From a virus (lineage: Duplodnaviria > Caudoviricetes): a DNA stretch of 64,000 bases. A program made the position numbers and the translations under genes. Location: positions 1 to 64,000 of the IMG/VR virus record IMGVR_UViG_3300035454_000831, one strand, 5' to 3'. This document shows, piece after piece, positions 4,678-56,812 of the stretch; the stretch's first letter is position 1; each line of letters starts with the position of its first letter. Below the pieces are notes generated by a model. The model had not been told where the DNA came from, ran no database searches, and saw only the letters and a list, made by a program, of their open reading frames with translations.

Positions 4678-4684
4678 TAGTTAT
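4678..4684 (+). promoter_or_regulatory. Putative late promoter TAGTTAT
   Basis: 7 nt gap to ATG 4692; motif recurs before structural genes. Confidence 0.6.
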
Positions 4685-4691
4685 TTTTATC

Positions 4692-4973
4692 ATGAAAAAC
4701 CTGTCAGAAGACGCTACTAAGTTCTTGAGTATGATTGAGGACTCCTCACCACGTAACTTCTACGCGGTTATGAAAGGAAGAGACCAGCTCGTCAAGTTTC
4801 TCAGTTCTACTACAGAACCGGACGAGCGATACAGGTCTGCTGAAGAGGGTCCGGAAGACCGTGGTTATGGATGGGTCGATAGGGATCCGGACGAGGTCAC
4901 TAAGCTCGTTAATAAGGCGAAGGAACTCGGTATCGAGTTCTTTCTCTCCCCATCCCCTCTACCTATCAACTGA
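4692..4973 (+). CDS. Small protein with MKNLSE leader, putative internal head protein
   Basis: Late motif upstream; N-terminus identical to that of ORF 33550. Confidence 0.65.
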   Translation: MKNLSEDATKFLSMIEDSSPRNFYAVMKGRDQLVKFLSSTTEPDERYRSAEEGPEDRGYGWVDRDPDEVTKLVNKAKELGIEFFLSPSPLPIN

Positions 4974-5334
4974 ACTGCGCCCTTACTGCTTTGGCGTATT
5001 TGCCCCGACTAGCCACTTCTCCAGTTTCGAATGCTGGACAGGAACAGACCCTAGACTCTTTCACCTTCCCAGTTAGTTTAAGGTTACCTGACCCCAACTT
5101 CGAGAAGTACATGCAAACCGGGACCTTGCAAAGATCGGTCGAGACGTTCTGAATGGTTACCAGACTCCCAGATGGTATGGACTTGAAGCAATCCAAACAG
5201 CTAGTTGGTTCGTCTAATTGGTAAATTACCTCCGAGCCAACCTGTCCTACCTTCCTTCGTTTAGGGCGGACTGCCTCCTGAGTTGGTAACTCTTCTGGTT
5301 GTGATTTGTGTTTGGTCGGATTTCTGGTCGGCAT
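4966..5334 (-). CDS. Hypothetical early protein with Cys pairs
   Basis: 122 aa; consensus promoter 5 nt upstream. Confidence 0.7.
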   Translation of the reverse strand: MPTRNPTKHKSQPEELPTQEAVRPKRRKVGQVGSEVIYQLDEPTSCLDCFKSIPSGSLVTIQNVSTDLCKVPVCMYFSKLGSGNLKLTGKVKESRVCSCPAFETGEVASRGKYAKAVRAQFS

Positions 5335-5339
5335 GGTTT

Positions 5340-5368
5340 ATTATAGCATAAGTCTTGATAAGTGTCAA
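5340..5368 (-). promoter_or_regulatory. sigma70-type early promoter
   Basis: TTGACA-N17-TATAAT; 5 nt gap to ATG 5334. Confidence 0.88.
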
Positions 5369-5370
5369 GG

Positions 5371-7125
5371 CTAAGATTTGCTTATCGCTAATTGTCCCCC
5401 TCTACTGACCTCCCAGGTCTGATCCACATCTTGTTTAATCTCCCCAGCGGAGTGAGTTATCAGGAAAACCGAGGACTTCACCTGAGAAATCTCCTTTAGG
5501 AGCATTAGAACTGCGCGTTGTAACGGCGGATCTAACTTCTCGAAGGTCTCATCGAAGAATACATGATTGAACCTATTGTTCCTCTTGTTGCTGAGAGACA
5601 TCAGACACATCAGTATTATGATGTCTATAGTTCTTCTTTCACCAGCACTGCTACCGTGGTATTGCCAAGCGCCTATTGGATTGTGGACCTCCACCGACAG
5701 ATTCCCGGAGAAGGCTTCATCAGTTCCTCTGATCGCGAACTTAACCTTGATCGGCGTATTTAATAACTCAGCCACCCTTCCGGCTTCCTCATTCATGTAT
5801 GGTATCACAGACCTGATAACGCTGAGCTTGAACCCCCTATTTGAAAATAACTCCTCCAGAATCTCCTCATCCTCGATCCTTTTCTTCATGATGTCGATTC
5901 TACCAATAACGTCCAGTTTAGCCTCCTTTGCCTTCCTGATACGTTCCTCTGCGTCTTTGGCTCTGGTCAGCTCCGATAGTATTCGAGATTCACTCCTGTG
6001 AAGAGAGGATATCTCCGTGTTTATTTCGTCCTTCGTCGTTTGATATTTGTTTAGGAGTTTCCTAGACTTAGAGGATATAGTGTCGACAGTCTCTTCGGCG
6101 GATTCTAACCTGTCATCTAGGGATTTTTTCCTGGCCAACTCAGCCTCCAAGTTTTCCTCCAACTTCCTCTTCTCCTCGTCAATATTATGGGGACAGATTG
6201 ACTCAGTTTCCTGGCCGCATTCATGGCATCTCCCTGCCTCTACTAGCGATTCTATCCTCTTTAACTCCCTCAAGGATGACTTTATCTCTGAGATCGTGTC
6301 CGGGAGCATTTTGAAAAGTGGATTAGTACGTAGGGAGACGAGGTGATCTTTGGCTTCCTTGGCGAGTCCCATGAGTTTTTCATTCTTAACTTCGAATAGT
6401 TCCTCGACAGTTTCGAGCAACTCGGTCTGTTCTTTCAGCCTATCGGAGATATCGGAGAGAGACTCCTCCATGGCGCGGGAGTCTGAGATCTCGAAGGCTT
6501 CTTCCTCGGATAGTCTTTGCTCAGCTATCTGGAACTCCCGCATCAGGGCGTTATGCTCGGACTTTAGAGCTTTCAATATTCCACTGGTTTCTTCATGAGC
6601 TCCTTGGACGATCCATAACTCCAGGAGTTCGTCCAATACCGACTTCTTCTCACTATCAGAGGCGTCTGGGAACTTCCCCATGTCCGTTGAGCACACAACA
6701 CTCCTTCTGAAAACTCTCTCGGACATCTTCAAGAGACCATCACTTATCAACTTCTGGGTATCTTTGGAGGTGCCCCGGGTGAGTCTGTCCTCTGTGCCAT
6801 CATCATGGAGCCTATGAAGCTCAAGACCGGACAACTTCAACTCACTATCCTTACCTCTCATAATCCTAAACCTGCCGGACTCAGATTTCAACCATATGCA
6901 CACCGAGAATTCCTTTTCAGTGTTCTTTTTGACTGACTGTCCTGGATTCGAGCCGTACTCGAACGAACTCCCATAGAGACCATATAATACTGATTCACAA
7001 GTGAGAGCCGTCTTTCCAGATCCAACCCTACCATGAACGACTACCAAGCCTTGATTTTCGAATTCAAGCTCAGCCAACCCTATTGAGAAGAAGTTCTTTA
7101 TCTTTATCCTTTCAAGTGTCGTCAT
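5371..7125 (-). CDS. SbcC/Rad50/gp46-like recombination ATPase
   Basis: Walker A GRVGSGKT, coiled coil with CHEC zinc hook, SAGERR signature, FFDE Walker B, ITHS H-loop. Confidence 0.92.
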   Translation of the reverse strand: MTTLERIKIKNFFSIGLAELEFENQGLVVVHGRVGSGKTALTCESVLYGLYGSSFEYGSNPGQSVKKNTEKEFSVCIWLKSESGRFRIMRGKDSELKLSGLELHRLHDDGTEDRLTRGTSKDTQKLISDGLLKMSERVFRRSVVCSTDMGKFPDASDSEKKSVLDELLELWIVQGAHEETSGILKALKSEHNALMREFQIAEQRLSEEEAFEISDSRAMEESLSDISDRLKEQTELLETVEELFEVKNEKLMGLAKEAKDHLVSLRTNPLFKMLPDTISEIKSSLRELKRIESLVEAGRCHECGQETESICPHNIDEEKRKLEENLEAELARKKSLDDRLESAEETVDTISSKSRKLLNKYQTTKDEINTEISSLHRSESRILSELTRAKDAEERIRKAKEAKLDVIGRIDIMKKRIEDEEILEELFSNRGFKLSVIRSVIPYMNEEAGRVAELLNTPIKVKFAIRGTDEAFSGNLSVEVHNPIGAWQYHGSSAGERRTIDIIILMCLMSLSNKRNNRFNHVFFDETFEKLDPPLQRAVLMLLKEISQVKSSVFLITHSAGEIKQDVDQTWEVSRGGQLAISKS

Positions 7126-7132
7126 ATTTGGA

Positions 7133-7155
7133 AGAAAGCTTCGGTATCTAGTTAT
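7133..7155. promoter_or_regulatory. Divergent putative middle (GCTTTCT, minus strand) and late (TAGTTAT, plus strand) promoters
   Basis: 7 nt before ATG 7125 and 6 nt before ATG 7162. Confidence 0.55.
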
Positions 7156-7161
7156 TGAAAG

Positions 7162-9570
7162 ATGTCACACAATAAAACAATAGACCTCACAGCCAGGGAG
7201 TTCGACACAAACCTTCTAGCCCTGATAGACACACTCAAGAAGGAGTCTCCGGAGAGCTGGAATTCGTTTTATGAAGGTGACCTTGGCAAGATAGTACTCG
7301 ACCTAATATCCTACGACTTTTCGATTCTCAGCTATACAGCCGATATGGCAGCTGGTGAGTCCTTCATCGACACCCATAAGACTATTGAGGCTCAACAGCA
7401 CTTCTGCAGTCAGAACGGATATAAAGTTCGTGGTGCCACAGCGGCAGTAATAGAGCTATACTGTCAAACATCTTCTCCCCCGCAAACGGGTTCCTATCAG
7501 TTGATCAAGAAAGGGTCTCGGATTAGGAGTAATAACGGTCTAGTGTGGGAAGTGTCGAAAGATCATTATATAGAACCCGGGAAGTCTACTCCAGTGGTAG
7601 AGGTGTTAAGGTACGGGGACTTGAGGGGATCAGTAGTTTCCCCGACCGGGACCGTAACCAAGGTTGACGCTCTTATCACCATAAAGCCGGGGTCGAGCCA
7701 GGCCATATTGACGGATACGAATGGCGTAAGGCTATCTTCTGAGGTCGGCTTCGGCGTGGTGTCAGAGGGGTCTGTCTTGAAGTTGGTCAGGGCGTACAGC
7801 CCCTCCAGTGGAGTCTTCGGACCTCCACCAGGACCAACCAGGAACGAGTACGCTATAATAGGTGTTGGGAAACTAGACACGGACGCTTACGATAAGTCGG
7901 TTTTATTCCTTGATCGAGTTTGGGATCAGGACACTAACTTCATTGGTCAGTGGGTGATCGAGAACAGGAATGTGGAAGTCACTCAAGGTGAAAGTTTCCA
8001 GGAGTCATATATTGTCCCGGAAGTTCTGGAGGACAGAGTTAATTGGACCACAAAGACATCCTTTTACCCAGTCATCTTCACTAACAATGAAGGTGTCATG
8101 CCCTCTGGATTCTTCGGAAACTCCCTTGATGGAGACGGGTATACGAACACCGGGGTTGAAGTCTACGTTAATGGTATTCAATGGGAGGAAACAAGTAACC
8201 TGATCTTCGAGACCCCGACGTCAAGAGTTTATCAAGTCTCGATCGATGAACTCGGGAGAGTGGTAATAAAATTCGGGGATGGTAGATTTGGGAAGGTCCT
8301 TCCGAGCAGCGCCGTAGTTGATATAAAATACAGGGTGGGTGGCGGTAAAGATGGTAACGTTCCACAAGGGTATTTCAACACTTCAATTCAGGCGGAGTCA
8401 TCAACCGGAGACTCAGTCACTGTTTATATTTCCAATCCGTACACAGTTGGTAGGGGCGGTCAGGATAGAGAGTCTATGGACTCGGTCCGGGCGAACCTCA
8501 AAAACTTCATCAGAACGAACGATAGGGCGGTGAGCGGGGAGGATTACGACTACTTGGCGTCCAACTTCGTCGATAGCAATGGCGGAAGGATAAAGTATGC
8601 CAAATCGGTGCTCAACACAAACATGGTCCCACGGGAACAGAATTTGGTTTGGGTATACACCTGGACAGAAGGAGTGAACGGCCAACTCACTAGACCAAAC
8701 TCGTTATTGAAACGAAGACTTCACGAGTATTTGGACAAGCGAAAAATGCTGTGTGACGAGGTGGTAATCTTGGATGGTCAAGTCAAGAATGTGCCAGTAG
8801 AATTTCGATACAAATATTCAAAGGAGGCGAACGAGTCGGAAGTACAGGAATCAGTGAGGGCTTCCATCAATGGAGTCTTCAAGTCTCTGTTACCTGGAGA
8901 TCAGTTGTCTATAAGCAGGCTATATGAAGCTATGGAAGCAATTCCCCAAGTCGAGTGGGTTAACTTCTACAGCCCCTATGAAAACATATCACCTCAGTCG
9001 GAATACACCCTACTGATAAACTCGGTTCAGCCAGCAGCTAGGTCCAGCCTGACCTCTCAAGTGTCAAGAACAGATACCATGTTGTTGGTAAGCGACTCAT
9101 CCAGTTTCGTTGTTGGTGGTCTGATCGCGTTGTTCGAGCTCGGTAGGTCCTCCTCCTGTGCCATAATAGAGTCGATCTCAGGGAACATAATTTCTATTAG
9201 ACCGGAGACTCCCTTGATCGACGACTACACCACCGCCGCTACTATCCTCAACTCAGATTGGTACGCGATGGGGTGGCAGTATGACAAAGTGGTGAATGTT
9301 TACGTCACATATGATACTCTGAACGGAGATTCTCTGGTATACGTCGGTCATCAAATCAAAAAGAAGATGAATGACTACTTCACACGAATCATAAGCGTGG
9401 GAGAGTCAGTATCACGGGTTGTCCTGCAATCTTTGGTCTCTTCAATTAGTGGTATAACCTCCTACAGCGTGAACATCGGTAGCGTTGACTCACAGGTTGA
9501 AATGGTGTCAATGATTCCGCGAGAAAAAGCAGTCCTTGGGAAGGTTATTATAAACGGTACAGATTTCTAA
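7162..9570 (+). CDS. Baseplate wedge protein, gp6/baseplate J-like
   Basis: IKFGDGRFGK, YRVGGGKDGN, GGQDRES and RAVSGEDY motifs. Confidence 0.88.
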   Translation: MSHNKTIDLTAREFDTNLLALIDTLKKESPESWNSFYEGDLGKIVLDLISYDFSILSYTADMAAGESFIDTHKTIEAQQHFCSQNGYKVRGATAAVIELYCQTSSPPQTGSYQLIKKGSRIRSNNGLVWEVSKDHYIEPGKSTPVVEVLRYGDLRGSVVSPTGTVTKVDALITIKPGSSQAILTDTNGVRLSSEVGFGVVSEGSVLKLVRAYSPSSGVFGPPPGPTRNEYAIIGVGKLDTDAYDKSVLFLDRVWDQDTNFIGQWVIENRNVEVTQGESFQESYIVPEVLEDRVNWTTKTSFYPVIFTNNEGVMPSGFFGNSLDGDGYTNTGVEVYVNGIQWEETSNLIFETPTSRVYQVSIDELGRVVIKFGDGRFGKVLPSSAVVDIKYRVGGGKDGNVPQGYFNTSIQAESSTGDSVTVYISNPYTVGRGGQDRESMDSVRANLKNFIRTNDRAVSGEDYDYLASNFVDSNGGRIKYAKSVLNTNMVPREQNLVWVYTWTEGVNGQLTRPNSLLKRRLHEYLDKRKMLCDEVVILDGQVKNVPVEFRYKYSKEANESEVQESVRASINGVFKSLLPGDQLSISRLYEAMEAIPQVEWVNFYSPYENISPQSEYTLLINSVQPAARSSLTSQVSRTDTMLLVSDSSSFVVGGLIALFELGRSSSCAIIESISGNIISIRPETPLIDDYTTAATILNSDWYAMGWQYDKVVNVYVTYDTLNGDSLVYVGHQIKKKMNDYFTRIISVGESVSRVVLQSLVSSISGITSYSVNIGSVDSQVEMVSMIPREKAVLGKVIINGTDF

Positions 9571-9575
9571 CTAAA

Positions 9576-11573: not shown

Positions 11574-11577
11574 CAAC

Positions 11578-11584
11578 TAGTTAT
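11578..11584 (+). promoter_or_regulatory. Putative late promoter TAGTTAT
   Basis: 4 nt gap to GTG 11589. Confidence 0.65.
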
Positions 11585-20170: not shown

Positions 20171-20809
20171 TTAGACTGGTTTCCTAGCTGCAACCAGTCT
20201 ATCCCTGCTCAACTTCTGAGTGTACTCCCGTCCGGATGCAATATGCTCCGTACTAACCCTTAAGTACTGTGGCGATGCGACCTCTATCGACTTCACCACA
20301 TATGAGTCGGGTTGATAGTTCCAGGAAACAATGTACCCGGGCCTTAGTTCCCTAGCTAGTATTGCTGGAGTTTTACCGATACCCTGTAAATGGACGAATC
20401 TCGTGGATTCGTCTAGGTACTTGTTGATGGCTGCTGGGGAATCGTTTATCGGAACGCAACAATCACCCTTCCTAGACCTCCTGACATTCTTCTTCTCGGA
20501 GTCGTAATAGGCCCTGCCACTCTTGAGCAATGAAGCGGCTTGTTTTCTCAAGTTTCCAGGAAGCTCCCTCAGTCTCATTGAGTCTTCCCTAAGACTCGCT
20601 TCCGTCTTCAGGACCCTCGTAAAGTCTGGCCTCGGCAGGATGCCACCATTAGCTAATACCTGGGCGTCGAACTTCTTCTCATGACAGGACAGGCAGATCC
20701 CACCTGGGAATACAGCTAGTTCACTGATTTCGCTCCCACATTTTTTACAATTGACAGTATCGTAATGATAGTCTTCACCTTCCAGCAGTCTTCTACCCAA
20801 TTCATTCAT
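20171..20809 (-). CDS. Multi-module protein with LxE leader and linkers
   Basis: Start MNELGRRLLE after TAATTAT (20814-20820); CxxC..CxxC module, middle module, SH3-like C-terminal module. Confidence 0.7.
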   Translation of the reverse strand: MNELGRRLLEGEDYHYDTVNCKKCGSEISELAVFPGGICLSCHEKKFDAQVLANGGILPRPDFTRVLKTEASLREDSMRLRELPGNLRKQAASLLKSGRAYYDSEKKNVRRSRKGDCCVPINDSPAAINKYLDESTRFVHLQGIGKTPAILARELRPGYIVSWNYQPDSYVVKSIEVASPQYLRVSTEHIASGREYTQKLSRDRLVAARKPV

Positions 20810-20817
20810 CGGGATAA

Positions 20818-21033
20818 TTACAGCTGATCGAGGAATTCTTGGACATCGGCCAATGTCTTCCAAGATTCGGCGACAACATCCGTTACCACTATTCCAAATT
20901 CATCTTCCACTACTCCAACGAAAAGCGATAGGTCTAGGTCATCGTGAATGAATTCAGAAAGCTGAGTGTCTTCTGAAAAGTCTGAAGTGTCGACCCCCCA
21001 CTCCTCGATGGCTTTTTTAAGTTCTAAGATCAT
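20818..21033 (-). CDS. Acyl carrier protein-like, lacking the phosphopantetheine Ser
   Basis: Acidic, 71 aa; VEDEFGI...AE..KT..DV pattern; DDLD replaces DSLD. Confidence 0.8.
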   Translation of the reverse strand: MILELKKAIEEWGVDTSDFSEDTQLSEFIHDDLDLSLFVGVVEDEFGIVVTDVVAESWKTLADVQEFLDQL

Positions 21034-22331
21034 ATTTCTGAGAGGCTTTCTAGAACTACCTTCATGAATTCCTGATCAACGCCTTTTAGGCTTGTGGATT
21101 CAAAGAGAACGGTCTCTGATTCTTGCCAGAAACGAACTGAGTTGGAGTCTATCCAAGACATCCAGCGTCTGGAATCTTTGACTCTGGAAATAAAGGATGG
21201 TGCCGGAATAGGGGGAACCACGACCATTATTGAATCCCGGATTTCCCTGATCTCCAACTTTGACCCCTCCTGGTAGGTGTCCGGGAAGACCTCGTTGATG
21301 GACCTTACAAACTCCCATACTATTTCCGGTAACTTGGCTTTCAACTCTTGATTTATCCTCTCCAGGGAACTATCAAGGAGGCGTCGTATGATCAGTGGAT
21401 TCATCTCCGGATTGATCTCAATATCGAGGGCGTCGGAAACTATCTCGTAGTCTATCACTAGCCACTTCTTGGCGTTGTCCATGATAGCCTCCCGTTTCGG
21501 CTTCAGAACCTCTTGCCCATTTTTTCTGAGCCCCATTGCGCCACCCCCAGAGATGACTTCTAGGACTGTTTCGGCTTGCGCTTCGTCCATTCTAGAGACC
21601 AAACTGAGAAGCTTAGAAACTGAATCCTCTGGCTCTTCGTCTGGGACTTTTAGGACTCCGGCTTTGATGGCTCTCTGAGCCATCTCCTTAAACTTATTCT
21701 TCTCGGTTTGATTCATGATGTGATGAGGTAAACTTGATTCCCAAGGAAGAAACTCCAGTATTTTCTTCCTAACGTCCATGTAGATTTTGTCTTTGTCTTC
21801 TACTGCGGCTTCCAACTCTGCCTTCATTGAGTTGTTCTCGTGCCATAGGAGACACCACAGGCGAGTGGCATTGAACTTGCCCTCCCCGTAGAGACTATCT
21901 GCAACTGGCTTATAGATAGCAGCGTAGTCAACTTTATTCGGCACTATCAGGCCATCGCTCACCAAAACCTCCTGACTGTTTAGTTCAGAATGGTCGAGGT
22001 GAACCATCCCCTGCCTCAAATTGAGACCCCTCTTTTGACTCCTGATGTGCTTACGGTGATGAGCAAAACACGCGTTCCTGCAACTCTGGTATAAGGATGA
22101 TCTGAAGGCTTCGATTTCCTCCTTACCCTTGCTCTTCAAGTAGTAGTCAGGGTGCTTCTCTACCAGATCCAGATACCTCATCAAAACCTCGGCGTTCAGA
22201 TGCCCCTCAATATCCTCATAATCGAAGCCTTGAGTATTGTAGTGTGATGCATTAGTACTGTAGAACCAGCGAGCACACTGCTTCACTACTTCGAGCCCAT
22301 TTTCGAGACAAGCATTATATTCAAGTGGCAT
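21030..22331 (-). CDS. Putative sigma-factor-like transcription protein
   Basis: N-terminal GFDYEDI...FRSSLYQSCRNACFAHHRK resembles sigma70/ECF region 2. Confidence 0.5.
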   Translation of the reverse strand: MPLEYNACLENGLEVVKQCARWFYSTNASHYNTQGFDYEDIEGHLNAEVLMRYLDLVEKHPDYYLKSKGKEEIEAFRSSLYQSCRNACFAHHRKHIRSQKRGLNLRQGMVHLDHSELNSQEVLVSDGLIVPNKVDYAAIYKPVADSLYGEGKFNATRLWCLLWHENNSMKAELEAAVEDKDKIYMDVRKKILEFLPWESSLPHHIMNQTEKNKFKEMAQRAIKAGVLKVPDEEPEDSVSKLLSLVSRMDEAQAETVLEVISGGGAMGLRKNGQEVLKPKREAIMDNAKKWLVIDYEIVSDALDIEINPEMNPLIIRRLLDSSLERINQELKAKLPEIVWEFVRSINEVFPDTYQEGSKLEIREIRDSIMVVVPPIPAPSFISRVKDSRRWMSWIDSNSVRFWQESETVLFESTSLKGVDQEFMKVVLESLSEI

Positions 22332-22340
22332 AGGGTGTAA

Positions 22341-23372
22341 TCAGGGGGCTAGCAGGTGAGATAGTGTTTGTGTTATTTCATCAAATTCGGAGCCTCCAGA
22401 GATGGCCCTCTTAAGGATCTCGTCGCCGTTGGGCATCCTCATTATCTCGTTCGGGTCACCATCAAATAAGCGGACCGCCCGGGCGTTTAGCCCAGTTCTA
22501 CAGAGTATATTTGCCAGTTCTTTCGCCTTGTGATAGGCATCAGGGTCAAATACTACCAGAACCTCCTCCGGTTCGAAGTATTTGATCTTCCCCCACTGAG
22601 AGTTGAGTGGGTGCCTGTCCGGAGATGGGAACGATAATGTAGTACCTTGGAGGCTGACCCCGAAGTACCCATTGTGCAACCTATCGAAATGATCTTGAAG
22701 TGATATTTGATCAAGAGTGCCCTCAACTAGAGCTATGCGACAACCCTTCTCAACCCTATCCACGCCATACAGCCATGAGTTCTTACCCATACCATTACTT
22801 GAGTCAGGATTCTTCTTTTTCGTCTTCGGATTGCTCAATAACTCTGGGTATGCCGCTCTCCCCTGGAAGTACACTCTCTCACCGTCTTCAAGAAATGGGA
22901 ATATAACGTAGCCGTCGTATTTACCACTCTCGCAGAACCCAATTTTATTCTTCAGCATCAACTCCCTACTGATGCCCTTATTACTTAAAGACTCCGTGAA
23001 GTAATTACTCTCACTTCCAATTAACTCAAACTCCTTTGGAAGTGGCGTGACAGACGAATCGAACCTAACCTTCTTGGTCTCGAAAATGGTCTTCAGATTG
23101 GCAAGGTCATCAATGACGTCAGTGAATGAAACTGTCAAGTGGACTCCAAAGTTTTCTAACCAGGATGACGCATTACCATGTCCCCACCCACATTTGACGC
23201 AATGAGCTTTATTAATCCGAACGTTGATTCCAAGGTGACCGCTCTCGTCGGGTGAAAGTCCTCTCTTGTGACAGTATGGACATCTGACGTTTATCTGATC
23301 GCCGCCACCTGATAACCACGTAAGTCCGAATCTGCGTTCTAAAGATTCGAGTAGGACTGGTGTGAGAAACAT
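22341..23372 (-). CDS. DNA primase (DnaG-like)
   Basis: CPYC..H..CVKC zinc domain, VIFPF..YFQGR, TOPRIM VEG..D, FDPD, DPNE. Confidence 0.92.
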   Translation of the reverse strand: MFLTPVLLESLERRFGLTWLSGGGDQINVRCPYCHKRGLSPDESGHLGINVRINKAHCVKCGWGHGNASSWLENFGVHLTVSFTDVIDDLANLKTIFETKKVRFDSSVTPLPKEFELIGSESNYFTESLSNKGISRELMLKNKIGFCESGKYDGYVIFPFLEDGERVYFQGRAAYPELLSNPKTKKKNPDSSNGMGKNSWLYGVDRVEKGCRIALVEGTLDQISLQDHFDRLHNGYFGVSLQGTTLSFPSPDRHPLNSQWGKIKYFEPEEVLVVFDPDAYHKAKELANILCRTGLNARAVRLFDGDPNEIMRMPNGDEILKRAISGGSEFDEITQTLSHLLAP

Positions 23373-23379
23373 CTTGGTT

Positions 23380-23408
23380 ATTCTAACTCAGATTTTTACA
23401 TCTGTCAA
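23380..23408 (-). promoter_or_regulatory. sigma70-type promoter of the primase-sigma-ACP operon
   Basis: TTGACA-N17-TAGAAT; 7 nt gap to ATG 23372. Confidence 0.8.
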
Positions 23409-23457
23409 GCGCGAGCTTTTCAGCCGTGTTAGAAATCGACATTTTTAAATATTCTAA

Positions 23458-27157: not shown

Positions 27158-27435
27158 TGGCAGCGCGGGAAAAGGTAGACACCACTGCGTACATTGGGGG
27201 AGACCCTCCAGTACTGATAAGGAGCTTGATCGTGAGAACTCCGGTGAAAACTGTATTCATCAACAACAACCTAGTCGCTGTCAAGGGTAGCGTGTCTGCC
27301 GACAGAACCTCGATAACACAGGGAAGCAGAGACGTCTTTGCGGAGGGTATACCAGTGGCTAGGTTACTAGATAAAACCAGTATAAACGGGTTCGTCGAGA
27401 CATCTTCCAAAGACGTGTTGGTTAACGGACGTTAG
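27157..27435 (+). CDS. PAAR/gp5.4-like spike tip
   Basis: MAAR, VFINNNLVA, GSRDVFAEGIPVAR; TAATG coupling. Confidence 0.82.
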   Translation: MAAREKVDTTAYIGGDPPVLIRSLIVRTPVKTVFINNNLVAVKGSVSADRTSITQGSRDVFAEGIPVARLLDKTSINGFVETSSKDVLVNGR

Positions 27436-27979
27436 GAGGAATTAAGACGTAAGTGGTCGGCACTGTATCATCAGATTCTGATATTTTCAAGCCGGGAATC
27501 AACTCAAGACTCTTTTTCCTGATCCACTTGAACTTTGATACTGAGATCGTCACCTCAACCTTGTGACCGGAGAGAAGGGTTTCGAACACTTTCTTGTACT
27601 TCGGCAGGAGCGGGTGTTCGTTTATTCTCCGCACGAGCATTTGCCAAGCTCTCTTTTGGAGAATTGCTCTACCACCGAATAACTTCTCCGGTTTCTTTGG
27701 GTAGAATACCTGATGGATGTATTGTCTGGAGAGTCCCAACTCGTTGGCAATAGACTGCATGACTCCTCCACTCTTACCAACTGGTGGTATAAACCTCAAA
27801 TCTTGCCTCTTTGAGTACATCTCCCGCTTCTCTTCCGGGGAATAAGCCAATTGACGCCTTTGTTCCGGTGTCATCTCTCTCCAATCGTCATCTATCGCCT
27901 CGACTCGTGATAGTTCGATGGTGAGTCTCTCTGACTCTGATAGTGTCTTTGGTCTCCTGAAAAACTTCATTAATCTCAT
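27422..27979 (-). CDS. Putative HTH DNA-binding protein
   Basis: MQSIANELGLSRQYIHQVF. Confidence 0.6.
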   Translation of the reverse strand: MRLMKFFRRPKTLSESERLTIELSRVEAIDDDWREMTPEQRRQLAYSPEEKREMYSKRQDLRFIPPVGKSGGVMQSIANELGLSRQYIHQVFYPKKPEKLFGGRAILQKRAWQMLVRRINEHPLLPKYKKVFETLLSGHKVEVTISVSKFKWIRKKSLELIPGLKISESDDTVPTTYVLIPPNVR

Positions 27980-29278: not shown

Positions 29279-29292
29279 TATGAAATTAGTAC

Positions 29293-29321
29293 TTGACAAA
29301 CAACCAAGACCATGTTATAAT
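29293..29321 (+). promoter_or_regulatory. sigma70-type early promoter
   Basis: TTGACA-N17-TATAAT; 5 nt gap to ATG 29327. Confidence 0.9.
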
Positions 29322-29326
29322 TAGAG

Positions 29327-33524: not shown

Positions 33525-33549
33525 ATGTCTAATCCTACCTATTTAAGTA

Positions 33550-33978
33550 ATGAAAAATCTATCCGAAACCGCTGCTAGGCTCCTTGAGGGAGAGCCCCAG
33601 CTCCCGTATCAAGCACGATACACCGATGGGCATGGGGAGAAGAGGAGCACCCTAATCATCCCCAACGATACTACCCTTCCACGTTTCAGAAAGTTGAAAA
33701 GCTCGTTGTACTCGTGGCGGTCTCCAATAAAATTCGCCATCGAAAAGAAAGTGAAGGATCAACTTGGTATCACTATTATTAGTGCAGGACAAGACGCAAA
33801 ATTGAATCTTGTCCTGATTATCGACAACGAGGAGGGTAAGGTGACGGACCTGCTGGAATTACTAGCTGATCCAAACATTCTCACCCCGGACCCGATCGGC
33901 CAAGCCAGGAGTGCTGGATTTAACACCCCTGAAGAATTCAACCGCTACTCTCACACGAGAGCGGCCACTGGGCGCTAG
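33550..33978 (+). CDS. Protein with MKNLSETAARLLE leader, putative internal head protein
   Basis: AATCCTACCTAT 7 nt upstream; LxE leader. Confidence 0.7.
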   Translation: MKNLSETAARLLEGEPQLPYQARYTDGHGEKRSTLIIPNDTTLPRFRKLKSSLYSWRSPIKFAIEKKVKDQLGITIISAGQDAKLNLVLIIDNEEGKVTDLLELLADPNILTPDPIGQARSAGFNTPEEFNRYSHTRAATGR

Positions 33979-44000: not shown

Positions 44001-44186
44001 TGGTGGCGAGGAGGGGGGTGGGAAGGCTCCAGGAGTTACATAATCGACACCCTAAATCGAGACGGTCTTCCAGGGGTACTCACATTCACCGACTCGGAGG
44101 CCGATTTTCTAGTGGCTCAAGTGGGGTCAGATTCGCTGAGACTAATAACCGCCACCGGGGACTACCTTATCGCCAAGCTAGGTTAA
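41001..44186 (+). CDS. Large baseplate wedge protein, gp7/gpI-like
   Basis: ELLP, RGLIASA...IKGS, ELW, IRPVTRT; 1061 aa. Confidence 0.65.
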   Translation: MSRPKSEQLVTIEKDAIFELLPFAIRTYDNGALKLLFRTVSEQHNFIISRLRELIRLQDPWLAAEFKPKSFGESEADYREYLGLIDRWSSLTEGQKAYVRSLDDKIPRSIKAGKFESTVLSALASNVGELTYGGKLRAGLRGLIASAISRHHIKGSHSSVYALGLVSGVFELSTKELWSRYSLSEPDNPASLKNNDDFAYEPDIYPYFPINGKYTGQTVAQYREPYGVYDPRVLDDASGLLYEEVFKWCVNDRTSPYWYNKVINGKNPFGRFIGDVTSKLISGTYKMSGGSDGTRAYALIPSLGGTQEVFEAVSYGYWANEVSLIVFNNRNGTQDVTVIGPRSKIKFKSSYFDLSVAADISVYPLIYPSIPVLRNSAASYLDEYLDRTLPEYPITTIRTGTVYERVISDPELHFQVDNRQLNELFGLVKLMFEGIRPVTRTVRFEQFGILLRDQVQYAPVLTINEVRIFSRNGTLWEMSVGADGAISWAISDGEATRIPIQYERLSKRMIRWSVSDSGVFTSLPINQADPENFGEAIVYYRSQSFNGFVYSENGILRTSTTSPSLLLDTIHTDGTFNEQILREQYTKYSESPIPGTEIYMSEDATYDDEPDSALQFQTGPEDGVLVRPMLTDFSGFHIDAHFGTEEELGFPGSNWWYDSNGEIVTRDIRLRSAGISPGFIEAVPTGNSIRRDGLTYGHPVHFLNHHNVAPWRSRVDNSPYYSQYTYDSPDRYTGAERVDVDLSEHDGPIEGSIQFGKGTDIQLSEDGYGVTPTHMCGGGLNGPEIDSLILNKVTRLSQICYKYVSITDHEGFMKVKTNKVNTLQVGSSVYLDDDPYKGFHRVTEIISSYEFITDTPYASTLSNGSLFCKSVDTHISNAQEAIIRISRDSNASPLTAFIFQRSLDGSSEVEIAEMLMTGEMEKEVTVSVEKETILLVYTSTESLDMVTVELPENVIEMRGNLMWAGGDRVSPEITIIEDGEHFFDYDEGGKSSFLQINGNKWWRGGGWEGSRSYIIDTLNRDGLPGVLTFTDSEADFLVAQVGSDSLRLITATGDYLIAKLG

Positions 44187-44495
44187 ATCGCTTACCGATT
44201 TCTTGCTCCACATTTTACACGACCAGTACCTGGCCTTCCATCTAGGGCCAGGATCTGTACAGTTAAACCTAGATCTGAAGTTCTTGCGATTCTCCGGGTT
44301 ATCCCTCTTGATCTCCATGTTGGGATCTCCGAAGTTAACCTTAACGACGTTACCCTTGTCATTCTTCACATACACCGAGAACTTCTTCGGACCTTTCGGT
44401 GTTCGAAACGGCTTTCCAAGCTCAACATCCTTTCCTTGGTATTCGGCTTCAGACAGCAGCGCATTAAGGGTATCAACTATATCATGGTCAGGCAT
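44178..44495 (-). CDS. Conserved basic viral protein with LSE leader
   Basis: KKFSVYVK..VNFGDP..RKNFRSR.NC...ARYWSC; TAGTTAT at 44500-44506. Confidence 0.8.
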   Translation of the reverse strand: MPDHDIVDTLNALLSEAEYQGKDVELGKPFRTPKGPKKFSVYVKNDKGNVVKVNFGDPNMEIKRDNPENRKNFRSRFNCTDPGPRWKARYWSCKMWSKKSVSDLT

Positions 44496-44515
44496 GTAGA
44501 TAACTACAGGCTATC

Positions 44516-45723: not shown

Positions 45724-45801
45724 AACTCTATAGAATGTGCACTATTATATATTGACAATGATCCACTTGAGTTATCATTGTTCCGTACCTAGTTATCAAT
45801 A

Positions 45802-46137
45802 ATGAAACTCTCAGAGTCTATTAAGGTGATTGGAAAAGTGGTACTTGAATACAAAGAAGCCGGAGTCGCACGTGAGGTATTCAAACAAGAGGAAATGATA
45901 ATCGGGGAAAGATACTTCCTAGTTACCGGGGAGGCTTCTGCGAATATGATCGATGATAGCGACTTTGATCGTGAGACCGGATATGGTAGACTAGTCTACC
46001 CAGAGGATTTGAACGTAGAGATAACATCTATCATGGAGATTCTGGATGATGACACCAGTGTTGACGTAACGAACGATCCTGGTACTCGGTCCCTCGTAAT
46101 AGATCACATTAAAGAAGAGTTTGAGAGCCAGCATTAA
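45802..46137 (+). CDS. Acidic late protein with MKLSE leader
   Basis: TAGTTAT at 45790-45796. Confidence 0.7.
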   Translation: MKLSESIKVIGKVVLEYKEAGVAREVFKQEEMIIGERYFLVTGEASANMIDDSDFDRETGYGRLVYPEDLNVEITSIMEILDDDTSVDVTNDPGTRSLVIDHIKEEFESQH

Positions 46138-50433: not shown

Positions 50434-50436
50434 TAC

Positions 50437-50465
50437 TTGACAAAATTCACAATCGGTGTTATAAT
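50437..50465 (+). promoter_or_regulatory. sigma70-type early promoter
   Basis: TTGACA-N17-TATAAT; 6 nt gap to ATG 50472. Confidence 0.9.
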
Positions 50466-50471
50466 GTCGGC

Positions 50472-50705: not shown

Positions 50706-50706
50706 T

Positions 50707-51207: not shown

Positions 51208-51214
51208 GTAAAAT

Positions 51215-51871: not shown

Positions 51872-51879
51872 ATCGAGGA

Positions 51880-52593
51880 ATGAAGTCATCACAGACAACT
51901 TACGAGCGCTTGCATCCGGCCTCTCGGTGGCTCCGCAGGGTATGGTATAACTTCTGGCACAAGGATCAGGCAATGTGCGGGCGCTGCGGACACATTGAGC
52001 AAGCGAATGGTGCATCGTGGAGGTGGTACGGAGTCACTTGCCATTTCCCGGACCAATGCTCTAAATGCAACTGGCCAAATGCTAAAGTCCTGACGACCTG
52101 TGAAAAATCGAATCAACTTATGAGAACAGACTTGAAAGCCGCCAAATATGCGGAAGCGAAACATGCGGGGCAAAAACGCCGAAACGGCGAGCCCTATTTT
52201 TCACACGTCGAGGCAGTCGCAACAATCGTGCGAGACTCATGGCTCGAATCGACCAACGAATATGATATTGTGGCTGCAGCATACCTCCATGATGTCATCG
52301 AGGATTGCGGCGTTACCAAGCAAGGTCTCATTGAGGAGGGTTTTCCCGTCATGGTAGCGGAGATTGTGGACGCATTATCCAGGAAGCCAGGGGAAACCTA
52401 CTTTGACTTCATCATGCGACTCCACCACATGTATGATACTAGCAGCAGTGGTCCACTTCGGGAAGGGATTATCGAAGTCAAGCTCGCCGACCTCCAGCAC
52501 AATATGAGCGACCTCAAGGAAGGATCACTCAAGGACAAATATAGGTTCGCAAAATACATTCTTACCCAACCCCTCATCAATTATGGACTATAA
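51880..52593 (+). CDS. HD-domain (p)ppGpp hydrolase-like (SpoT/Mesh1) protein
   Basis: H.GQ.R..GEPY..H, AAAYLHDVIED, VKLAD..HN; N-terminal CxxC..CxxC; alternative start at 52120. Confidence 0.85.
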   Translation: MKSSQTTYERLHPASRWLRRVWYNFWHKDQAMCGRCGHIEQANGASWRWYGVTCHFPDQCSKCNWPNAKVLTTCEKSNQLMRTDLKAAKYAEAKHAGQKRRNGEPYFSHVEAVATIVRDSWLESTNEYDIVAAAYLHDVIEDCGVTKQGLIEEGFPVMVAEIVDALSRKPGETYFDFIMRLHHMYDTSSSGPLREGIIEVKLADLQHNMSDLKEGSLKDKYRFAKYILTQPLINYGL

Positions 52594-53011
52594 CGCGTCA
52601 GATACTCTGGGACGAGCGCTTCAACTGCAACAGGAGATTTCTAGGCTAATTTCCGAGCATGGGGTAAGTGCTGTCCTTGAAGCAATTTCGAATGATATTT
52701 CAAAGAGAGAGAAGATCATTCGGGATAACAATGATAGAAATCTCGGGGGAGCGGTTGAGTACATGTTCCCAGCACTTATTAAGGCGTACCCGAAGGTAGG
52801 TAAAAAGCTGGGTAACTGGTTGAGCCATGTTCTGAAGTGCCGTCCAGTGGTCGAGTCCTTAAAGATTATTAAAGCGGATAGTCCAAATCAATCCGTTGCT
52901 ATGAAGGAAGCCTACAACGAATGGGAGAGGATGAATGGAGGGGATGAATACGCATCCAGTTCCGAGCGAGTGCCTCAGACTGTTCGATTTCCAAACTGCA
53001 TAAATAAATAA
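52583..53011 (+). CDS. Hypothetical protein
   Basis: 142-aa ORF in operon. Confidence 0.65.
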   Translation: MDYNASDTLGRALQLQQEISRLISEHGVSAVLEAISNDISKREKIIRDNNDRNLGGAVEYMFPALIKAYPKVGKKLGNWLSHVLKCRPVVESLKIIKADSPNQSVAMKEAYNEWERMNGGDEYASSSERVPQTVRFPNCINK

Positions 53012-53182
53012 ATGAAAATAGAAGCACCGCACAAATATAACAAGGATAGGTTTATCGCGGCTTGGACTAATCGGTACGGGGGCGGTTATCGTAATGCCTT
53101 CCAAGTTTGGGTGCGTGGCGTCCAAACAGGGGCGGAAGCTTTTTGGCGAGAAATGGGAAACAGTATAGGCACACGCCGTTAA
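53012..53182 (+). CDS. Small hypothetical protein (56 aa, not in ORF track)
   Basis: MKIEAPHKYNKDRFIAAWTNRYGGG...; abuts the upstream stop. Confidence 0.55.
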   Translation: MKIEAPHKYNKDRFIAAWTNRYGGGYRNAFQVWVRGVQTGAEAFWREMGNSIGTRR

Positions 53183-53190
53183 GCGACAAC

Positions 53191-53451
53191 ATGAATCAAA
53201 GTATACACAAACTATTCGCTGCTCTGGAAATGATGGGGTTGGGGGAGTCAAGACCTCAAACTGAATATATTCAAGTAGTCCCACTTCCGAATTATACGCG
53301 CAACTTGTTCGGTCCAATCACTGAGATTGCTGGTAAGAAGCTAGAGTTGCTTGAGAGGAACCCAGAGGGTGATTGCTTATGCCTATTTTCCGGAGTTAAG
53401 GGGACCAATATTGTTGATGTCGATCACAGGGATATACAGGTGGGTGTCTGA
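53191..53451 (+). CDS. Hypothetical protein
   Basis: Start MNQSIHK. Confidence 0.65.
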   Translation: MNQSIHKLFAALEMMGLGESRPQTEYIQVVPLPNYTRNLFGPITEIAGKKLELLERNPEGDCLCLFSGVKGTNIVDVDHRDIQVGV

Positions 53452-53469
53452 CGATGAGTAGTTATCCAC

Positions 53470-53862
53470 ATGTCGAAGCTTGCAAAAACGTTACTGGAAT
53501 CAGATGAGATCTCCCAGGGAGTGTTCCGACTTCTGGAATTACAGACTCAGTTAAAGGTGTTTCACTGGAATACTTTCTCTCACGCTCAACACGAAGCCTT
53601 TGGAGACACTCAGGCCACCTTGGATGGCCTCATTGACAGCTTCATTGAGGGGTTTCAGGGCCTTTATGGAAGAATTTCGTTCGGCGGTCTAATTATCACT
53701 ATCGGAGACCTTGAGGATGTGGCAGTAATGGATTATCTGAGACTCCAACTGGAATGTCTTAATGAAATATCCAATCACCTTTCCGACACCAATCTTCTCA
53801 ACATCAGAGATGAAATGCTCCAGGCCGTGAGCAAATTGCTGTACTTGCTCACCTTAGAATAG
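53470..53862 (+). CDS. Dps/ferritin-like four-helix protein with LLE leader
   Basis: HWNT...HEAF...D..IE...G; IRDEML...YLLTL; TAGTTAT at 53459-53465. Confidence 0.82.
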   Translation: MSKLAKTLLESDEISQGVFRLLELQTQLKVFHWNTFSHAQHEAFGDTQATLDGLIDSFIEGFQGLYGRISFGGLIITIGDLEDVAVMDYLRLQLECLNEISNHLSDTNLLNIRDEMLQAVSKLLYLLTLE

Positions 53863-53887
53863 CCTGATACTAGGCTTTCTTAATTTG

Positions 53888-54808
53888 GTGGATGATACCC
53901 AAAATTGGATAAGAGATAGGTTGATATATCACTGGACATCTGTTTCAGGGAGTCAACCAGACCAAGGCGGATTCACCCCAAAGGGTGAGACGCTCGAAAA
54001 GTTGTGTATTATTCGAGAAAATAGAGGTGATAAGGAATTTGATGAATGGCTTAGGACTTCTATCTCCGCCTTCCTCCATCGTACTCGTGGGTCAGCCACG
54101 AAATTCTTCGTTAACTCATACCTTCTTAGTGAGTCTGCTTTAGAATACTTGAAGGAATTCAAGAAGCAGGAGGGAGCATATTCGGCCCTACCGAATAACC
54201 TTAATATCAGAAGTAGGATTTTGATGTCCGAGACTGACTACCTTGATACTATAATAACGATCAGTGTTTCAAGAGGCGGTAAGATAAACCTGTCAAGTAG
54301 TTCTTTCAAACCTGATATTTGGTGGATACTAGCCGCCGAGTTGTCGGGGAGGTTGACCAAAGAAGAATTTCCAGAACACTGGTTGACCGGAACCTACCAC
54401 ATTTCAGGTGGCAATCGTATTTTAGTTCAGGATGAATACGCCGCTAAGCGCAAGGAACTGCGTTCCTCCTCCTTGATGAGAGATCTATTGCTGACTGAAT
54501 TCAGGATTTCGGTCTCGGAATCCACCATAGGGTGGCTCGAAAGCCATAAACTGGCGGTCGCGGTTTCGGAGGAAGGCATGCTAACGATAGTATCCTCTAA
54601 TATCGATAGGGACTTAATTCCACCTTCACTCCATCCAAGAATCAGGGACGAGAAACTAGTTGAGGCCCTCAGATCAGTGATGGAGGTGAAAGAACTCAGC
54701 ATCTCCAAGGCGTCGAAGCAGATTAATGGGATCGATGCTAACACGTTGGTGAAAGCATCGGTCGACCCGATAGTTCAGCAACTATTGATGGCTTCCGGAA
54801 GTGACTAG
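53888..54808 (+). CDS. Hypothetical protein
   Basis: About 306 aa; GCTTTCT 7 nt before GTG 53888. Confidence 0.7.
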   Translation: MDDTQNWIRDRLIYHWTSVSGSQPDQGGFTPKGETLEKLCIIRENRGDKEFDEWLRTSISAFLHRTRGSATKFFVNSYLLSESALEYLKEFKKQEGAYSALPNNLNIRSRILMSETDYLDTIITISVSRGGKINLSSSSFKPDIWWILAAELSGRLTKEEFPEHWLTGTYHISGGNRILVQDEYAAKRKELRSSSLMRDLLLTEFRISVSESTIGWLESHKLAVAVSEEGMLTIVSSNIDRDLIPPSLHPRIRDEKLVEALRSVMEVKELSISKASKQINGIDANTLVKASVDPIVQQLLMASGSD

Positions 54809-54816
54809 TTATCAGC

Positions 54817-55314
54817 ATGCTTTCGGAAAGTAACTCCACGATAAGAAGAATGTTGATTGAGGCTTCTGATGTCTCCAGCTTATTGAAGGATGTAGTTTCT
54901 TCCAATAGGTTTGCCTTGAGGAGTTTAATCACCTTGTACAATTCCTTCAGGGGGGATGACCCGCAGCTTCAAAGCAAGGACTCAAAGGTAGCAATGCAAG
55001 CGGTCCTATCCGCGCTCTCCAAGAAAGACCCGGAACGGGCTTCTTATTTCGGTCAAATGACGTGGGAGCCTGATTCCCTTAAGTTTGCTGAATTTCTGAG
55101 TTCGGTGGGTGATAAGACCCTGGCACAATACCTCGGTATTTCTTCACCTGATGACATACCCATACCGGACACCTCTGACATCGAGAGTGATGATCTGGAC
55201 GGCGCTGAACTGGACGGCGCTGAACTGGACGCTGAGGAGTTTGGGGACGAGGACGAGGGTAGTGAACTCGATGATGAGGGAACCGAGGGTGACGTCATCG
55301 AACCTAAGGGCTGA
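54817..55314 (+). CDS. Late protein with LSE/LIE leader and a very acidic tail
   Basis: TAGTTAT at 54806-54812; D/E-rich C-terminus. Confidence 0.72.
   Translation: MLSESNSTIRRMLIEASDVSSLLKDVVSSNRFALRSLITLYNSFRGDDPQLQSKDSKVAMQAVLSALSKKDPERASYFGQMTWEPDSLKFAEFLSSVGDKTLAQYLGISSPDDIPIPDTSDIESDDLDGAELDGAELDAEEFGDEDEGSELDDEGTEGDVIEPKG
55195..55230 (+). repeat. 15-bp tandem repeat encoding LDGAE
   Basis: CTGGACGGCGCTGAA, about 2.4 copies. Confidence 0.85.
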
Positions 55315-55336
55315 AGAACCGCTTTCTATTTCAAGT

Positions 55337-55582
55337 ATGAATAACCCAGATCCCGCTCAAGACAACCCAGAAGTTCCCACCCAAGAGTCTGGAACCGATA
55401 CTCAAGTGCCGATGGTGGCCGTTACTCTCAGGTCAGTAATGTTGTCCTATAATCATCTCCTGTACGCATTTAAGGCTGGCAGCTTTAATAGCCTTAGTAT
55501 TAACGAGGTGAAGTCTGTCGTCGACAATATCGCCATGCTGAAATCCTTCATTCCAGAGTCTCTCCGTGGACAAGTTGAATGA
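55337..55582 (+). CDS. Hypothetical protein
   Basis: Start MNNPDP; GCTTTCT 9 nt upstream. Confidence 0.65.
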   Translation: MNNPDPAQDNPEVPTQESGTDTQVPMVAVTLRSVMLSYNHLLYAFKAGSFNSLSINEVKSVVDNIAMLKSFIPESLRGQVE

Positions 55583-55866
55583 AACCAGACGTCACGGCTT
55601 TCAAGGAAAGGTTCGAAAAGCTCTTGTCGAGAGACTTTTTGATGCTTGACAACGTCTCTGAAATAACCTGGAAAGATGGCACTCCGGGTTATTTCTTAAT
55701 GGTAGTATCACCGAAAACTGAAGACCTCTTTGACTCCATCAAAGAGCATTCGGTCTCGGTTCTCAGGACCATTGCCGAGAGCCTTAAGTTTAAGGCGGAG
55801 GCTCAGGAACTAGTGATCAATGGGGTCAAGTCTGCGGTTTTCAAAATAACTCCTGAGAAGAGTTAG
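55579..55866 (+). CDS. Hypothetical protein
   Basis: ATGA-coupled 95-aa ORF. Confidence 0.68.
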   Translation: MKPDVTAFKERFEKLLSRDFLMLDNVSEITWKDGTPGYFLMVVSPKTEDLFDSIKEHSVSVLRTIAESLKFKAEAQELVINGVKSAVFKITPEKS

Positions 55867-56534
55867 AAACCATCATCCATCCTCATAGCGATGTCATCAA
55901 CGGGTGACAAAGGCTTCTCATTCTGAGGTCTGTTCGTCTCTGAGAGGCTGGTCGAAGAGACCAAGTTTTGATAATGCGGGATGCTACCATCCGATTGCTT
56001 TATTATCGCACTTAGGCAAATATGAATCGGTACACTGCTATTCTGGAAGTAGTGTTTTGAGTTTATTTTGACGTGGGAAACCGAGTGGAGTATTCCCCTC
56101 CAAGTGAACTCATCCCCGACGCGGGGCCAGTAATCAAGGTCATAAAGCGTAGGAATACCAGTGTACAAAGTCAGGTCATAACTCTTCGATATCCCGGTCT
56201 TTTCATGTTTGGCACTCTCCTCTCCCAGTTCAATCTTCGCCCTTAACTTCAACAGGCGGTTGAACTCCAACTTCAAAGAGGCTGGTTCATGCCATAACTC
56301 GTCAATCTCCACTGGGTTGTCACCTGTATTAGTCCTGAGTTCCCTTATGGAAATCAAGGGATAGTTCTCATAGAACTCACGTATGATCTCGAATGACTCC
56401 CTGAAGTCTGACAGACCCCCAAGCTTAAAACCATCCATGTCCCCGGGACGAGTAATATTCAACAGTTCATCAATAGAGATACCTGAGAACTCATCTGGGT
56501 CGTACTTGAATATAGCCTGCTCATGGAACCTCAT
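55863..56534 (-). CDS. Putative neck / head-closure protein (gp14-like)
   Basis: DELWHE, K.GI, PRVGDEFTW pattern. Confidence 0.5.
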   Translation of the reverse strand: MRFHEQAIFKYDPDEFSGISIDELLNITRPGDMDGFKLGGLSDFRESFEIIREFYENYPLISIRELRTNTGDNPVEIDELWHEPASLKLEFNRLLKLRAKIELGEESAKHEKTGISKSYDLTLYTGIPTLYDLDYWPRVGDEFTWRGILHSVSHVKINSKHYFQNSSVPIHICLSAIIKQSDGSIPHYQNLVSSTSLSETNRPQNEKPLSPVDDIAMRMDDGF

Positions 56535-56542
56535 GAAGATAG

Positions 56543-56800
56543 TTACAAATCCAGCTCTGATTTTATTAGGTCTAGAGCCTCCTTATCGAATTTCTCAATT
56601 ATTCTGACTTTACTATCTAGGTGCTCCAGGGACTTCTTATGATCTGGACTTATAACTTGGAAATCATCATCTAGTTCAATTACTCCGGACAGATACCTTC
56701 CAAGAATTCTATCACTACCTTCTAGGTTGTCACTTTCTGAGACTATCACCTTTCGGAGCAACTTGGTTACTTCTGCCTTATCGAGTGGTACCCCTGACAC
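56543..56800 (-). CDS. Small late protein
   Basis: TAATTAT 4 nt before GTG; IVSE site. Confidence 0.6.
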   Translation of the reverse strand: MSGVPLDKAEVTKLLRKVIVSESDNLEGSDRILGRYLSGVIELDDDFQVISPDHKKSLEHLDSKVRIIEKFDKEALDLIKSELDL

Positions 56801-56804
56801 ATAG

Positions 56805-56812
56805 ATAATTAT
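56805..56812. promoter_or_regulatory. Palindromic ATAATTAT serving divergent late genes
   Basis: Reads TAATTAT on both strands, 3-4 nt before starts 56816 and 56800. Confidence 0.55.

Follow-up and report, generated by a model that had tools for sequence, protein, structure and literature searches.

Candidate T4-type capsid-targeting leaders on scattered late-type genes of an uncultivated T4-superfamily phage

T4-type propeptides and the candidate leaders

In bacteriophage T4, gp21 cleaves after L/I-X-E, and the first 10 residues of the internal protein (IP) IPIII are enough for targeting (PMC9026906); the internal proteins of T-even phages are highly diverse defence proteins in which only the targeting sequence is conserved (PMC3012670). 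Here we describe what may be the same arrangement in a 92.5-kb viral contig (IMG/VR record IMGVR_UViG_3300035454_000831, hereafter G000), the first 64 kb of which form the window: eight small genes scattered along the window each have a late-type heptamer just before the start codon and an N-terminal leader ending in L/I-x-E or a similar tripeptide. We consider it reasonably probable that these leaders are T4-type propeptides, which would direct late proteins into the head and be cut there by a protease of the Peptidase_S77 (T4 gp21) type; that the proteins are made late, are targeted to the head, cleaved and kept there, and are later ejected, we infer by analogy. The subset concerned would comprise at least genes 53470, 54817, 44495 and 20809, and probably also 33550, 4692 and 45802 (genes are named by the window position of their start). 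Such a system would essentially be the T4 internal-protein and targeting paradigm in a new lineage with new cargo, not a new system, and the finding opens no new kind of biology. The novelty implied by the original prediction, which had been made from the letters of this DNA, is not supported, because internal proteins of diverse kinds with nothing in common but a capsid targeting sequence are already known from the T4 literature.

The N-termini of T4 proteins were read from NC_000866. With a slash for the cut and the residue number of the glutamate, the propeptides end in IAE10/A (ipII and ipIII), ITE19/A (ipI), FDE10/D (alt), LRE10/S (gp24), LIE6/A (gp67), LIE9/T (gp21) and IAE9/A (gp22). 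In the window, the eight starts, the heptamers upstream of them and the N-terminal peptides were all located as originally described, and they are given here in the same notation together with the capsid gene:

10-1452, plus strand: gp23-like major capsid protein (phrog_138, 8.7e-46; 24% identity to T4 gp23, E = 8e-17).
4678-4973, plus strand: TAGTTAT (4678-4684), 7 nucleotides (nt), then a gene of 93 amino acids (4692-4973) with an acidic body (isoelectric point, pI, 4.7); leader sites LSE6/D and MIE16/D.
20171-20820, minus strand: TAATTAT (20814-20820), 4 nt, then a gene of 212 amino acids (20171-20809); leader LLE10/G.
33536-33978, plus strand: TACCTAT (33536-33542), 7 nt, then a gene of 142 amino acids (33550-33978); leader sites LSE6/T and LLE13/G.
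44178-44506, minus strand: TAGTTAT (44500-44506), 4 nt, then a basic protein of 105 amino acids (pI 10); leader LSE16/A, followed by the block AEYQGK.
45790-46137, plus strand: TAGTTAT (45790-45796), 5 nt, then an acidic gene product of 111 amino acids (45802-46137); leader sites LSE5/S and VLE16/Y.
53459-53862, plus strand: TAGTTAT (53459-53465), 4 nt, then a Dps/ferritin-like protein of 130 amino acids (DUF5856); leader LLE10/S.
54806-55314, plus strand: TAGTTAT (54806-54812), 4 nt, then a helical protein of 165 amino acids with a long acidic tail; leader sites LSE4/S and LIE15/A.
56543-56811, minus strand: TAATTAT (56805-56811), 4 nt, then a gene of 85 amino acids with a GTG start; leader VSE22/S.

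In seven of the eight proteins the third residue before the cut is L or I, and the site falls within residues 4-16. Gene 56800 is the weakest case, with its GTG start, a V-S-E as late as residue 22 and a heptamer that forms one arm of a palindrome shared with gene 56816.

The window leaders have the same form as the T4 propeptides, namely some 6-20 residues ending in L/I-x-E and followed by a small or acidic residue. As with IPI, IPII, IPIII and Alt, they stand on otherwise unrelated small proteins, putatively late, whose genes are scattered and have a late-type promoter each; an S77 protease in the lineage and a capsid propeptide with the same sites extend the likeness. There are also differences. 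The window leaders have no sequence in common with the MKT(Y/F) leader of T4, and many of them consist of two parts, an L-S-E near the start (residues 2-6) and a further site at residues 10-16. In place of TATAAATA, the promoter element reads TA-N-Y-TAT and is found 3-7 nt before the start codon; the relatives of the window phage encode the protease as a fusion with a scaffold; and the putative cargo consists of a Dps-like protein, a zinc-finger fusion and several proteins without known relatives. The giant phages of the phiKZ type (phiKZ, 201phi2-1 and SPN3US) are similar in that their ejection and inner-body proteins have propeptides: a diverged protease of the gp21 type processes many proteins inside the head, cutting behind the Glu of a motif of three residues, and the propeptides often contain several redundant sites. 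They differ in that their motif is S/A-x-E and their propeptides are mostly longer than 100 residues, whereas the motif here is L/I-x-E, the capsid is of the gp23 and not the phiKZ kind, and we saw no sign of virion RNA polymerase genes.

The contig starts 9 nt upstream of the capsid gene, and its completeness was estimated at ~45% by CheckV. Because it encodes a gp23-like capsid protein, a gp20-like portal protein (in the window) and baseplate proteins of the gp6 (7162), gp25 (40399, minus strand) and gp5 types, we assign the source phage to the T4 superfamily; judged by these genes it is a distant, uncultivated myovirus, and the contig would represent approximately half of its genome. The window additionally encodes an SbcC-like nuclease. 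Among GenBank phages, the best matches to the capsid gene product are only 36% identical, and 12 kb of the window compared with GenBank phages by megablast gave no match. Three related contigs (G001-G003) were found via the capsid, which is 94%, 70% and 70% identical, respectively, to that of the window; they have the capsid region in common with the window and almost no other window gene, and were used only for the protease and for additional leaders. In a further contig, G004, the proteins are 45-88% identical to their homologues in G000.

Late-type heptamers and L/I-x-E sites

TAGTTAT occurs 11 times in the window, compared with 5.4 times expected from shuffles, and it lies 4-7 nt 5' of a real open reading frame (ORF) start on the same strand in 9 of the 11 window copies and 10 of the 15 contig copies. 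Across the contig, TA-N-Y-TAT is found 3-7 nt before the start codon of 22 genes, among them the gp6-like and gp25-like baseplate genes; the heptamer is kept before homologous genes in G004 and also precedes the protease-scaffold gene of G001. Since the baseplate genes and this G001 gene share the heptamer, the pattern fits a late-promoter class. Early genes have near-consensus TTGACA-N17-TATAAT promoters upstream instead, and examples at window positions 4040-4081 and 29286-29323 (minus strand) and at G000 83445-83484 end ~5 nt 5' of the ATG. Because promoters end a few nucleotides before the ATG and Shine-Dalgarno sequences are almost absent throughout the contig, the mRNAs of both classes, early and late, may have little or no leader.

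Two further observations concern these promoter elements. In other T4-like contigs (loci L028, L029 and L030), a leaderless DUF5856 gene lies 5 nt 3' of TATAAATA, the classical T4 late promoter (at about 9970-9988 in L028), and this abutting geometry between promoter and ATG is the same as that of TAGTTAT in the window. The divergent genes 56800 (minus strand) and 56816 (plus strand, 830 amino acids) are separated by 15 nt and have in common the palindrome ATAATTAT, which reads TAATTAT on either strand.

The motif genes are enriched in L/I-x-E at their N-termini. Within the first 16 residues, [LI]xE is present in 11/22 motif genes and 10/61 other genes (Fisher p = 0.003), and the rate in motif genes also exceeds that of interior 16-residue windows, 16% of which contain [LI]xE (binomial p = 2e-4). 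When the first 20 residues are considered, the 22 motif proteins hold 14 [LI]xE occurrences against 5.1 expected (p about 9e-4), whereas the 61 non-motif proteins are at expectation (17 against 14.2). Two tripeptides stand out in the same 20 residues of the motif genes in tests made post hoc, LSE (5 observed, 0.49 expected) and LLE (4 observed, 0.28 expected). The trend is weakly repeated in four related contigs, where 10/30 motif genes have a leader site (p = 0.015); three of these 10 leader genes are homologues of window genes. The enrichment is thus real but modest, and a single L-x-E proves nothing.

The eight proteins are mutually unrelated, in agreement with the original prediction: similarity in an all-against-all BLASTP comparison is confined to the first 12 residues (4692 with 33550, and 20809 with 33550), and paralogy among the eight genes was rejected on this basis. 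The idea of a portable promoter-plus-leader cassette was also rejected, because no likeness at the DNA level extends beyond the heptamer; mean identity is 26% for the upstream regions (-40 to -12) and 28% for the leader-coding regions, which is that of random sequence. Only genes 4692 and 33550 share six codons (MKNLSE), with three synonymous differences. On this comparison, no mobile unit recurs; the recurrent features are a promoter element of very few nucleotides and a pattern in the peptide that is apparently under selection.

Leaders and their homologues

The leader of the Dps-like protein 53470 is 10 residues long. The protein passes the cut-off of PF19174 (DUF5856) with 45.6 bits (cut-off 34.6), and its AlphaFold2 (AF2) model, with a predicted local distance difference test (pLDDT) score of 84, is a four-helix bundle that begins at residue 12; pLDDT falls below 50 for residues 1-10 only, and the chain breaks at 10-11. 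The best Protein Data Bank folds listed for this model by Foldseek are all Dps or Dps-like (TM-scores 0.5-0.7, E about 7e-3), and the family has invariant His, Asp and Glu residues at positions recalling a ferroxidase site. By profile and predicted fold, 53470 is therefore Dps/ferritin-like. Its clade differs from other DUF5856 proteins in having an extra N-terminal leader of 10-11 residues: in 114 of the best 120 homologues, which lack the leader, HWQT begins between residues 16 and 26, and a start at 31-32 is seen only in 53470 and the four proteins closest to it. Three of these four have retained LLE at residues 8-10. A cut at the predicted E10/S11 would place the N-terminus within a few residues of the typical homologue start. 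Alignment and model together show a leader that is an add-on, separable from the folded domain, and the expectation that homologues would lack it was borne out.

In gene 54817 it is the site itself that is conserved. Across this protein and its relatives (13 proteins, 52-77% identity), conservation of L13 and of E15 is 90% or higher, eight different residues occur at the position between the two, and E15 is directly followed by A, S or G and then by the conserved body. A relative of 37% identity has an unalignable N-terminus and still carries LLE11 and LTE16. The alignment thus shows the L and Glu of the presumed cut site to be under selection. An AF2 model from the 13-sequence alignment reached a pLDDT of 60.6, too weak for a fold search.

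Gene 20809 is a two-module fusion, with a zinc-finger module (residues ~11-66), a second module (73-211) and LRE/D at the junction; other phages encode the corresponding parts (residues 7-63 and 73-211) in genes of their own. The C-terminal module of G004 stands alone behind its own TAGTTAT, 4 nt from the ATG, and has its own 12-residue leader ending in LNE12/D, which aligns with the LRE/D junction of 20809. This alignment fits a polyprotein in which the cleavage site has been retained.

The basic protein 44495 belongs to a very large and highly conserved family of aquatic phages (of 8,000 candidates that were scored, 7,998 matched, with identities of ~70-80% for the best), one member of which carries the label 'HVA1 family' in its GenBank record. 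The conserved block AEYQG adjoins the leader Glu. Among 75 members with the block, 57 have I, L, V or F three residues before it, 51 have E directly before it, and in 72 the block opens with A or S. The N-terminus begins with MK.F, like T4 ipI-III, in 35/120 listed members, and five have a 10-residue T4-like leader, a form also shown by the homologue in the Kyanoviridae phage C48C1. The family may be a widespread head-internal protein. Its N-terminal regions are otherwise very variable, and some members have a 100-residue N-terminal domain beginning MPIP.

The remaining candidates returned little in database searches. Gene 4692 had no PHROG or Pfam match and no IMG/VR relative; 33550 had no match but itself in a set of 1.84 billion representative proteins, no usable Atlas match and no IMG/VR relative; 45802, in which the Tyr after the second E is not T4-like, had only a weak match to phrog_30064 and no IMG/VR relative; and 56800 had no family match (PHROG, Pfam) and no relative in the IMG/VR scan, which likewise returned no relative of 54817. 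An extra gene of 121 amino acids in G004, with TAATTAT 6 nt before the ATG and LLE9/R, is inserted between genes that are adjacent in the window contig, which suggests that leader-type genes come and go.

Protease, proposed pathway and alternatives

As originally predicted, the N-terminus of the capsid protein contains the same sites, LSE21, LSE29 and LDE73. The pattern [LM]-D-E/[TS] at residues 71-73 is kept in 5/5 aligned capsid relatives, just before the conserved mature N-terminus, and L-x-E at residues 19-21 in 4/5. The alignment with T4 gp23 is significant from residue 97 only and ambiguous in the propeptide (E = 0.38), and the maturation site was therefore read from conservation among the relatives. 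Four relatives retain sequence upstream of the capsid gene. In G001-G003, Peptidase_S77 scores above the Pfam cut-off at the N-terminus of an ORF of 672-714 amino acids directly upstream of the capsid gene, and the fourth, more distant metagenomic relative (L039) has a homologous ORF in the same place. These matches show that an S77 protease is encoded in the lineage. The S77 domain is fused to a long Glu-rich, repeat-bearing region in all four (L003 7949-9967, which equals G001 21436-23454; G002; G003; L039 17680-19746, minus strand), and the ORF has the appearance of a protease joined to a scaffold, whereas gp21 and gp22 are separate in T4. In G001 it contains 22 [LI]xE against 11 expected and opens with LTE8, which resembles the LIE9 of T4 gp21.

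Taken together, the T4-like form of the leaders, their conservation and the S77 domain of the relatives agree with the predicted T4-type propeptides and gp21-like protease, with the reservation that the protease part is read from related contigs. In the proposed pathway, late transcription would start at the TA-N-Y-TAT abutting the start codon of ~22 genes, and a subset of the late proteins would carry a propeptide of 5-22 residues with L/I-x-E at its end, the residue behind the cut being small or acidic in most cases. The leader would dock the protein on the protease-scaffold core during prohead assembly and so lead to its enclosure in the shell. Cleavage by the S77 protease would follow the Glu of L/I-x-E, in many proteins at either of two redundant sites, and the mature protein would be freed inside the head with the processed capsid protein and stay with the DNA; at infection, a part of this set may be ejected together with the DNA.

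Several points weigh against this reading. No protease gene was found on this contig, its presence in this phage being taken from the relatives, and the L/I-x-E specificity of the lineage's putative protease is presumed by analogy. The phage is known only from a metagenome, and the reading is built on sequence. The eight genes were chosen by eye, and the LSE and LLE tests were made after the fact. Genes 4692, 33550, 45802 and 56800, which have no detectable homologues, are candidates by their pattern alone. The E-A-E-Y-Q-G stretch of 44495 is kept also in podoviruses, siphoviruses and an archaeal spindle virus; because it is conserved outside myoviruses, the Glu may be a residue of the domain itself instead of marking a cleavage site.

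Other points bear on the possibility that the sites are chance occurrences of L-x-E in ordinary N-terminal amphipathic helices, with neither cleavage nor targeting. The tripeptide is short and common, as the rate in interior windows indicates, and its background reaches 16-25% per N-terminal window. Late proteins outside the head show it too, for example the motif-bearing tail proteins encoded by the gp25-like gene (ISE8) and by 56816 (LRE9), and some of the occurrences must therefore be due to chance. In the model of 54817 the leader runs on into a long helix, and G001 taken alone has no clear enrichment (a leader in 2/15 motif genes). Set against this are the restriction of the enrichment to motif genes (p about 1e-3), the 10-residue extension of the 53470 clade, which is missing in homologues and lies outside the modelled fold, the conserved L13 and E15 of 54817 around a free middle residue, and the stand-alone homologue whose leader aligns with the junction site of 20809. 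We therefore regard chance as an unlikely explanation of the leaders as a whole.

Alternatively, the proteins might be packaged and processed as parts of the assembly, such as core, scaffold or size-determining proteins like T4 gp67 and gp68, and then be degraded or expelled, without being delivered to the host as cargo. The T4 core proteins gp22, gp67 and gp68 use the same kind of propeptide and the same protease, several of the candidates are small, acidic and helical (pI 4.1-4.7), like scaffold fragments, and 54817 has its long acidic tail. The Dps-like fold and the basic 44495, however, look DNA-associated and not scaffold-like, and the protease-scaffold fusion of the relatives already provides a scaffold; we consider this explanation distinctly unlikely. 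It is highly improbable that the N-terminal features merely reflect translation constraints on (near-)leaderless late mRNAs (an AAA second codon, an unstructured 5' coding end) and not a protein signal: the motif does end 3-7 nt before the start where Shine-Dalgarno sequences are scarce, the first codons may matter for initiation, and several leaders open with M-K, but such constraints explain neither the conserved L13 and E15 of 54817 with their free middle residue nor the LLE sites at residues 8-16, and the synonymous differences between the two MKNLSE leaders point to selection on the peptide.

The propeptide reading invites a broader proposal, which we put forward tentatively and hold to be possible, if doubtful: a two-part module, consisting of a 7-nt promoter abutting the start codon, which by its position implies leaderless mRNA, and a leader of 5-16 residues with redundant L-x-E sites, may recruit any protein into the head of a T4-like lineage with genomes of ~200 kb. 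The recruits would include orphan proteins, a Dps-like mini-ferritin and polyproteins split at L-x-E linkers. If this were true, such phages would co-inject more effectors than T4 with its three IPs and Alt, and would exchange them more freely. Should the narrower propeptide reading hold, the T4 manner of loading proteins into the head would not be peculiar to coliphages; it would be ancient, open to repeated use throughout the T4 superfamily and recognizable by sequence alone. A simple rule, a late motif together with an N-terminal L-x-E leader, would then predict which proteins of uncultivated T4-like phages are packaged and possibly injected. The packaged proteins would likely be counter-defence or DNA-protection factors; the candidates flagged here are the Dps-like protein and the very abundant basic family of aquatic phages with T4 IP-like N-termini.

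Two minor observations concern the genome and its coding content. Gene order is strongly shuffled among close relatives: G001, despite its nearly identical capsid, has hardly any other window gene in common with G000, and G004 is collinear with G000 at 83-91 kb and then directly with G000 at 5-33 kb (L036-L038), and the capsid end of G000 is therefore placed differently there. In addition, the protein encoded at 27422-27979 (minus strand, 185 amino acids, 70% identical in G004) has no late motif and was absent from the original list, and its basic stretch followed by LSE15, SE17 and IE22 makes it a further possible substrate of the protease.

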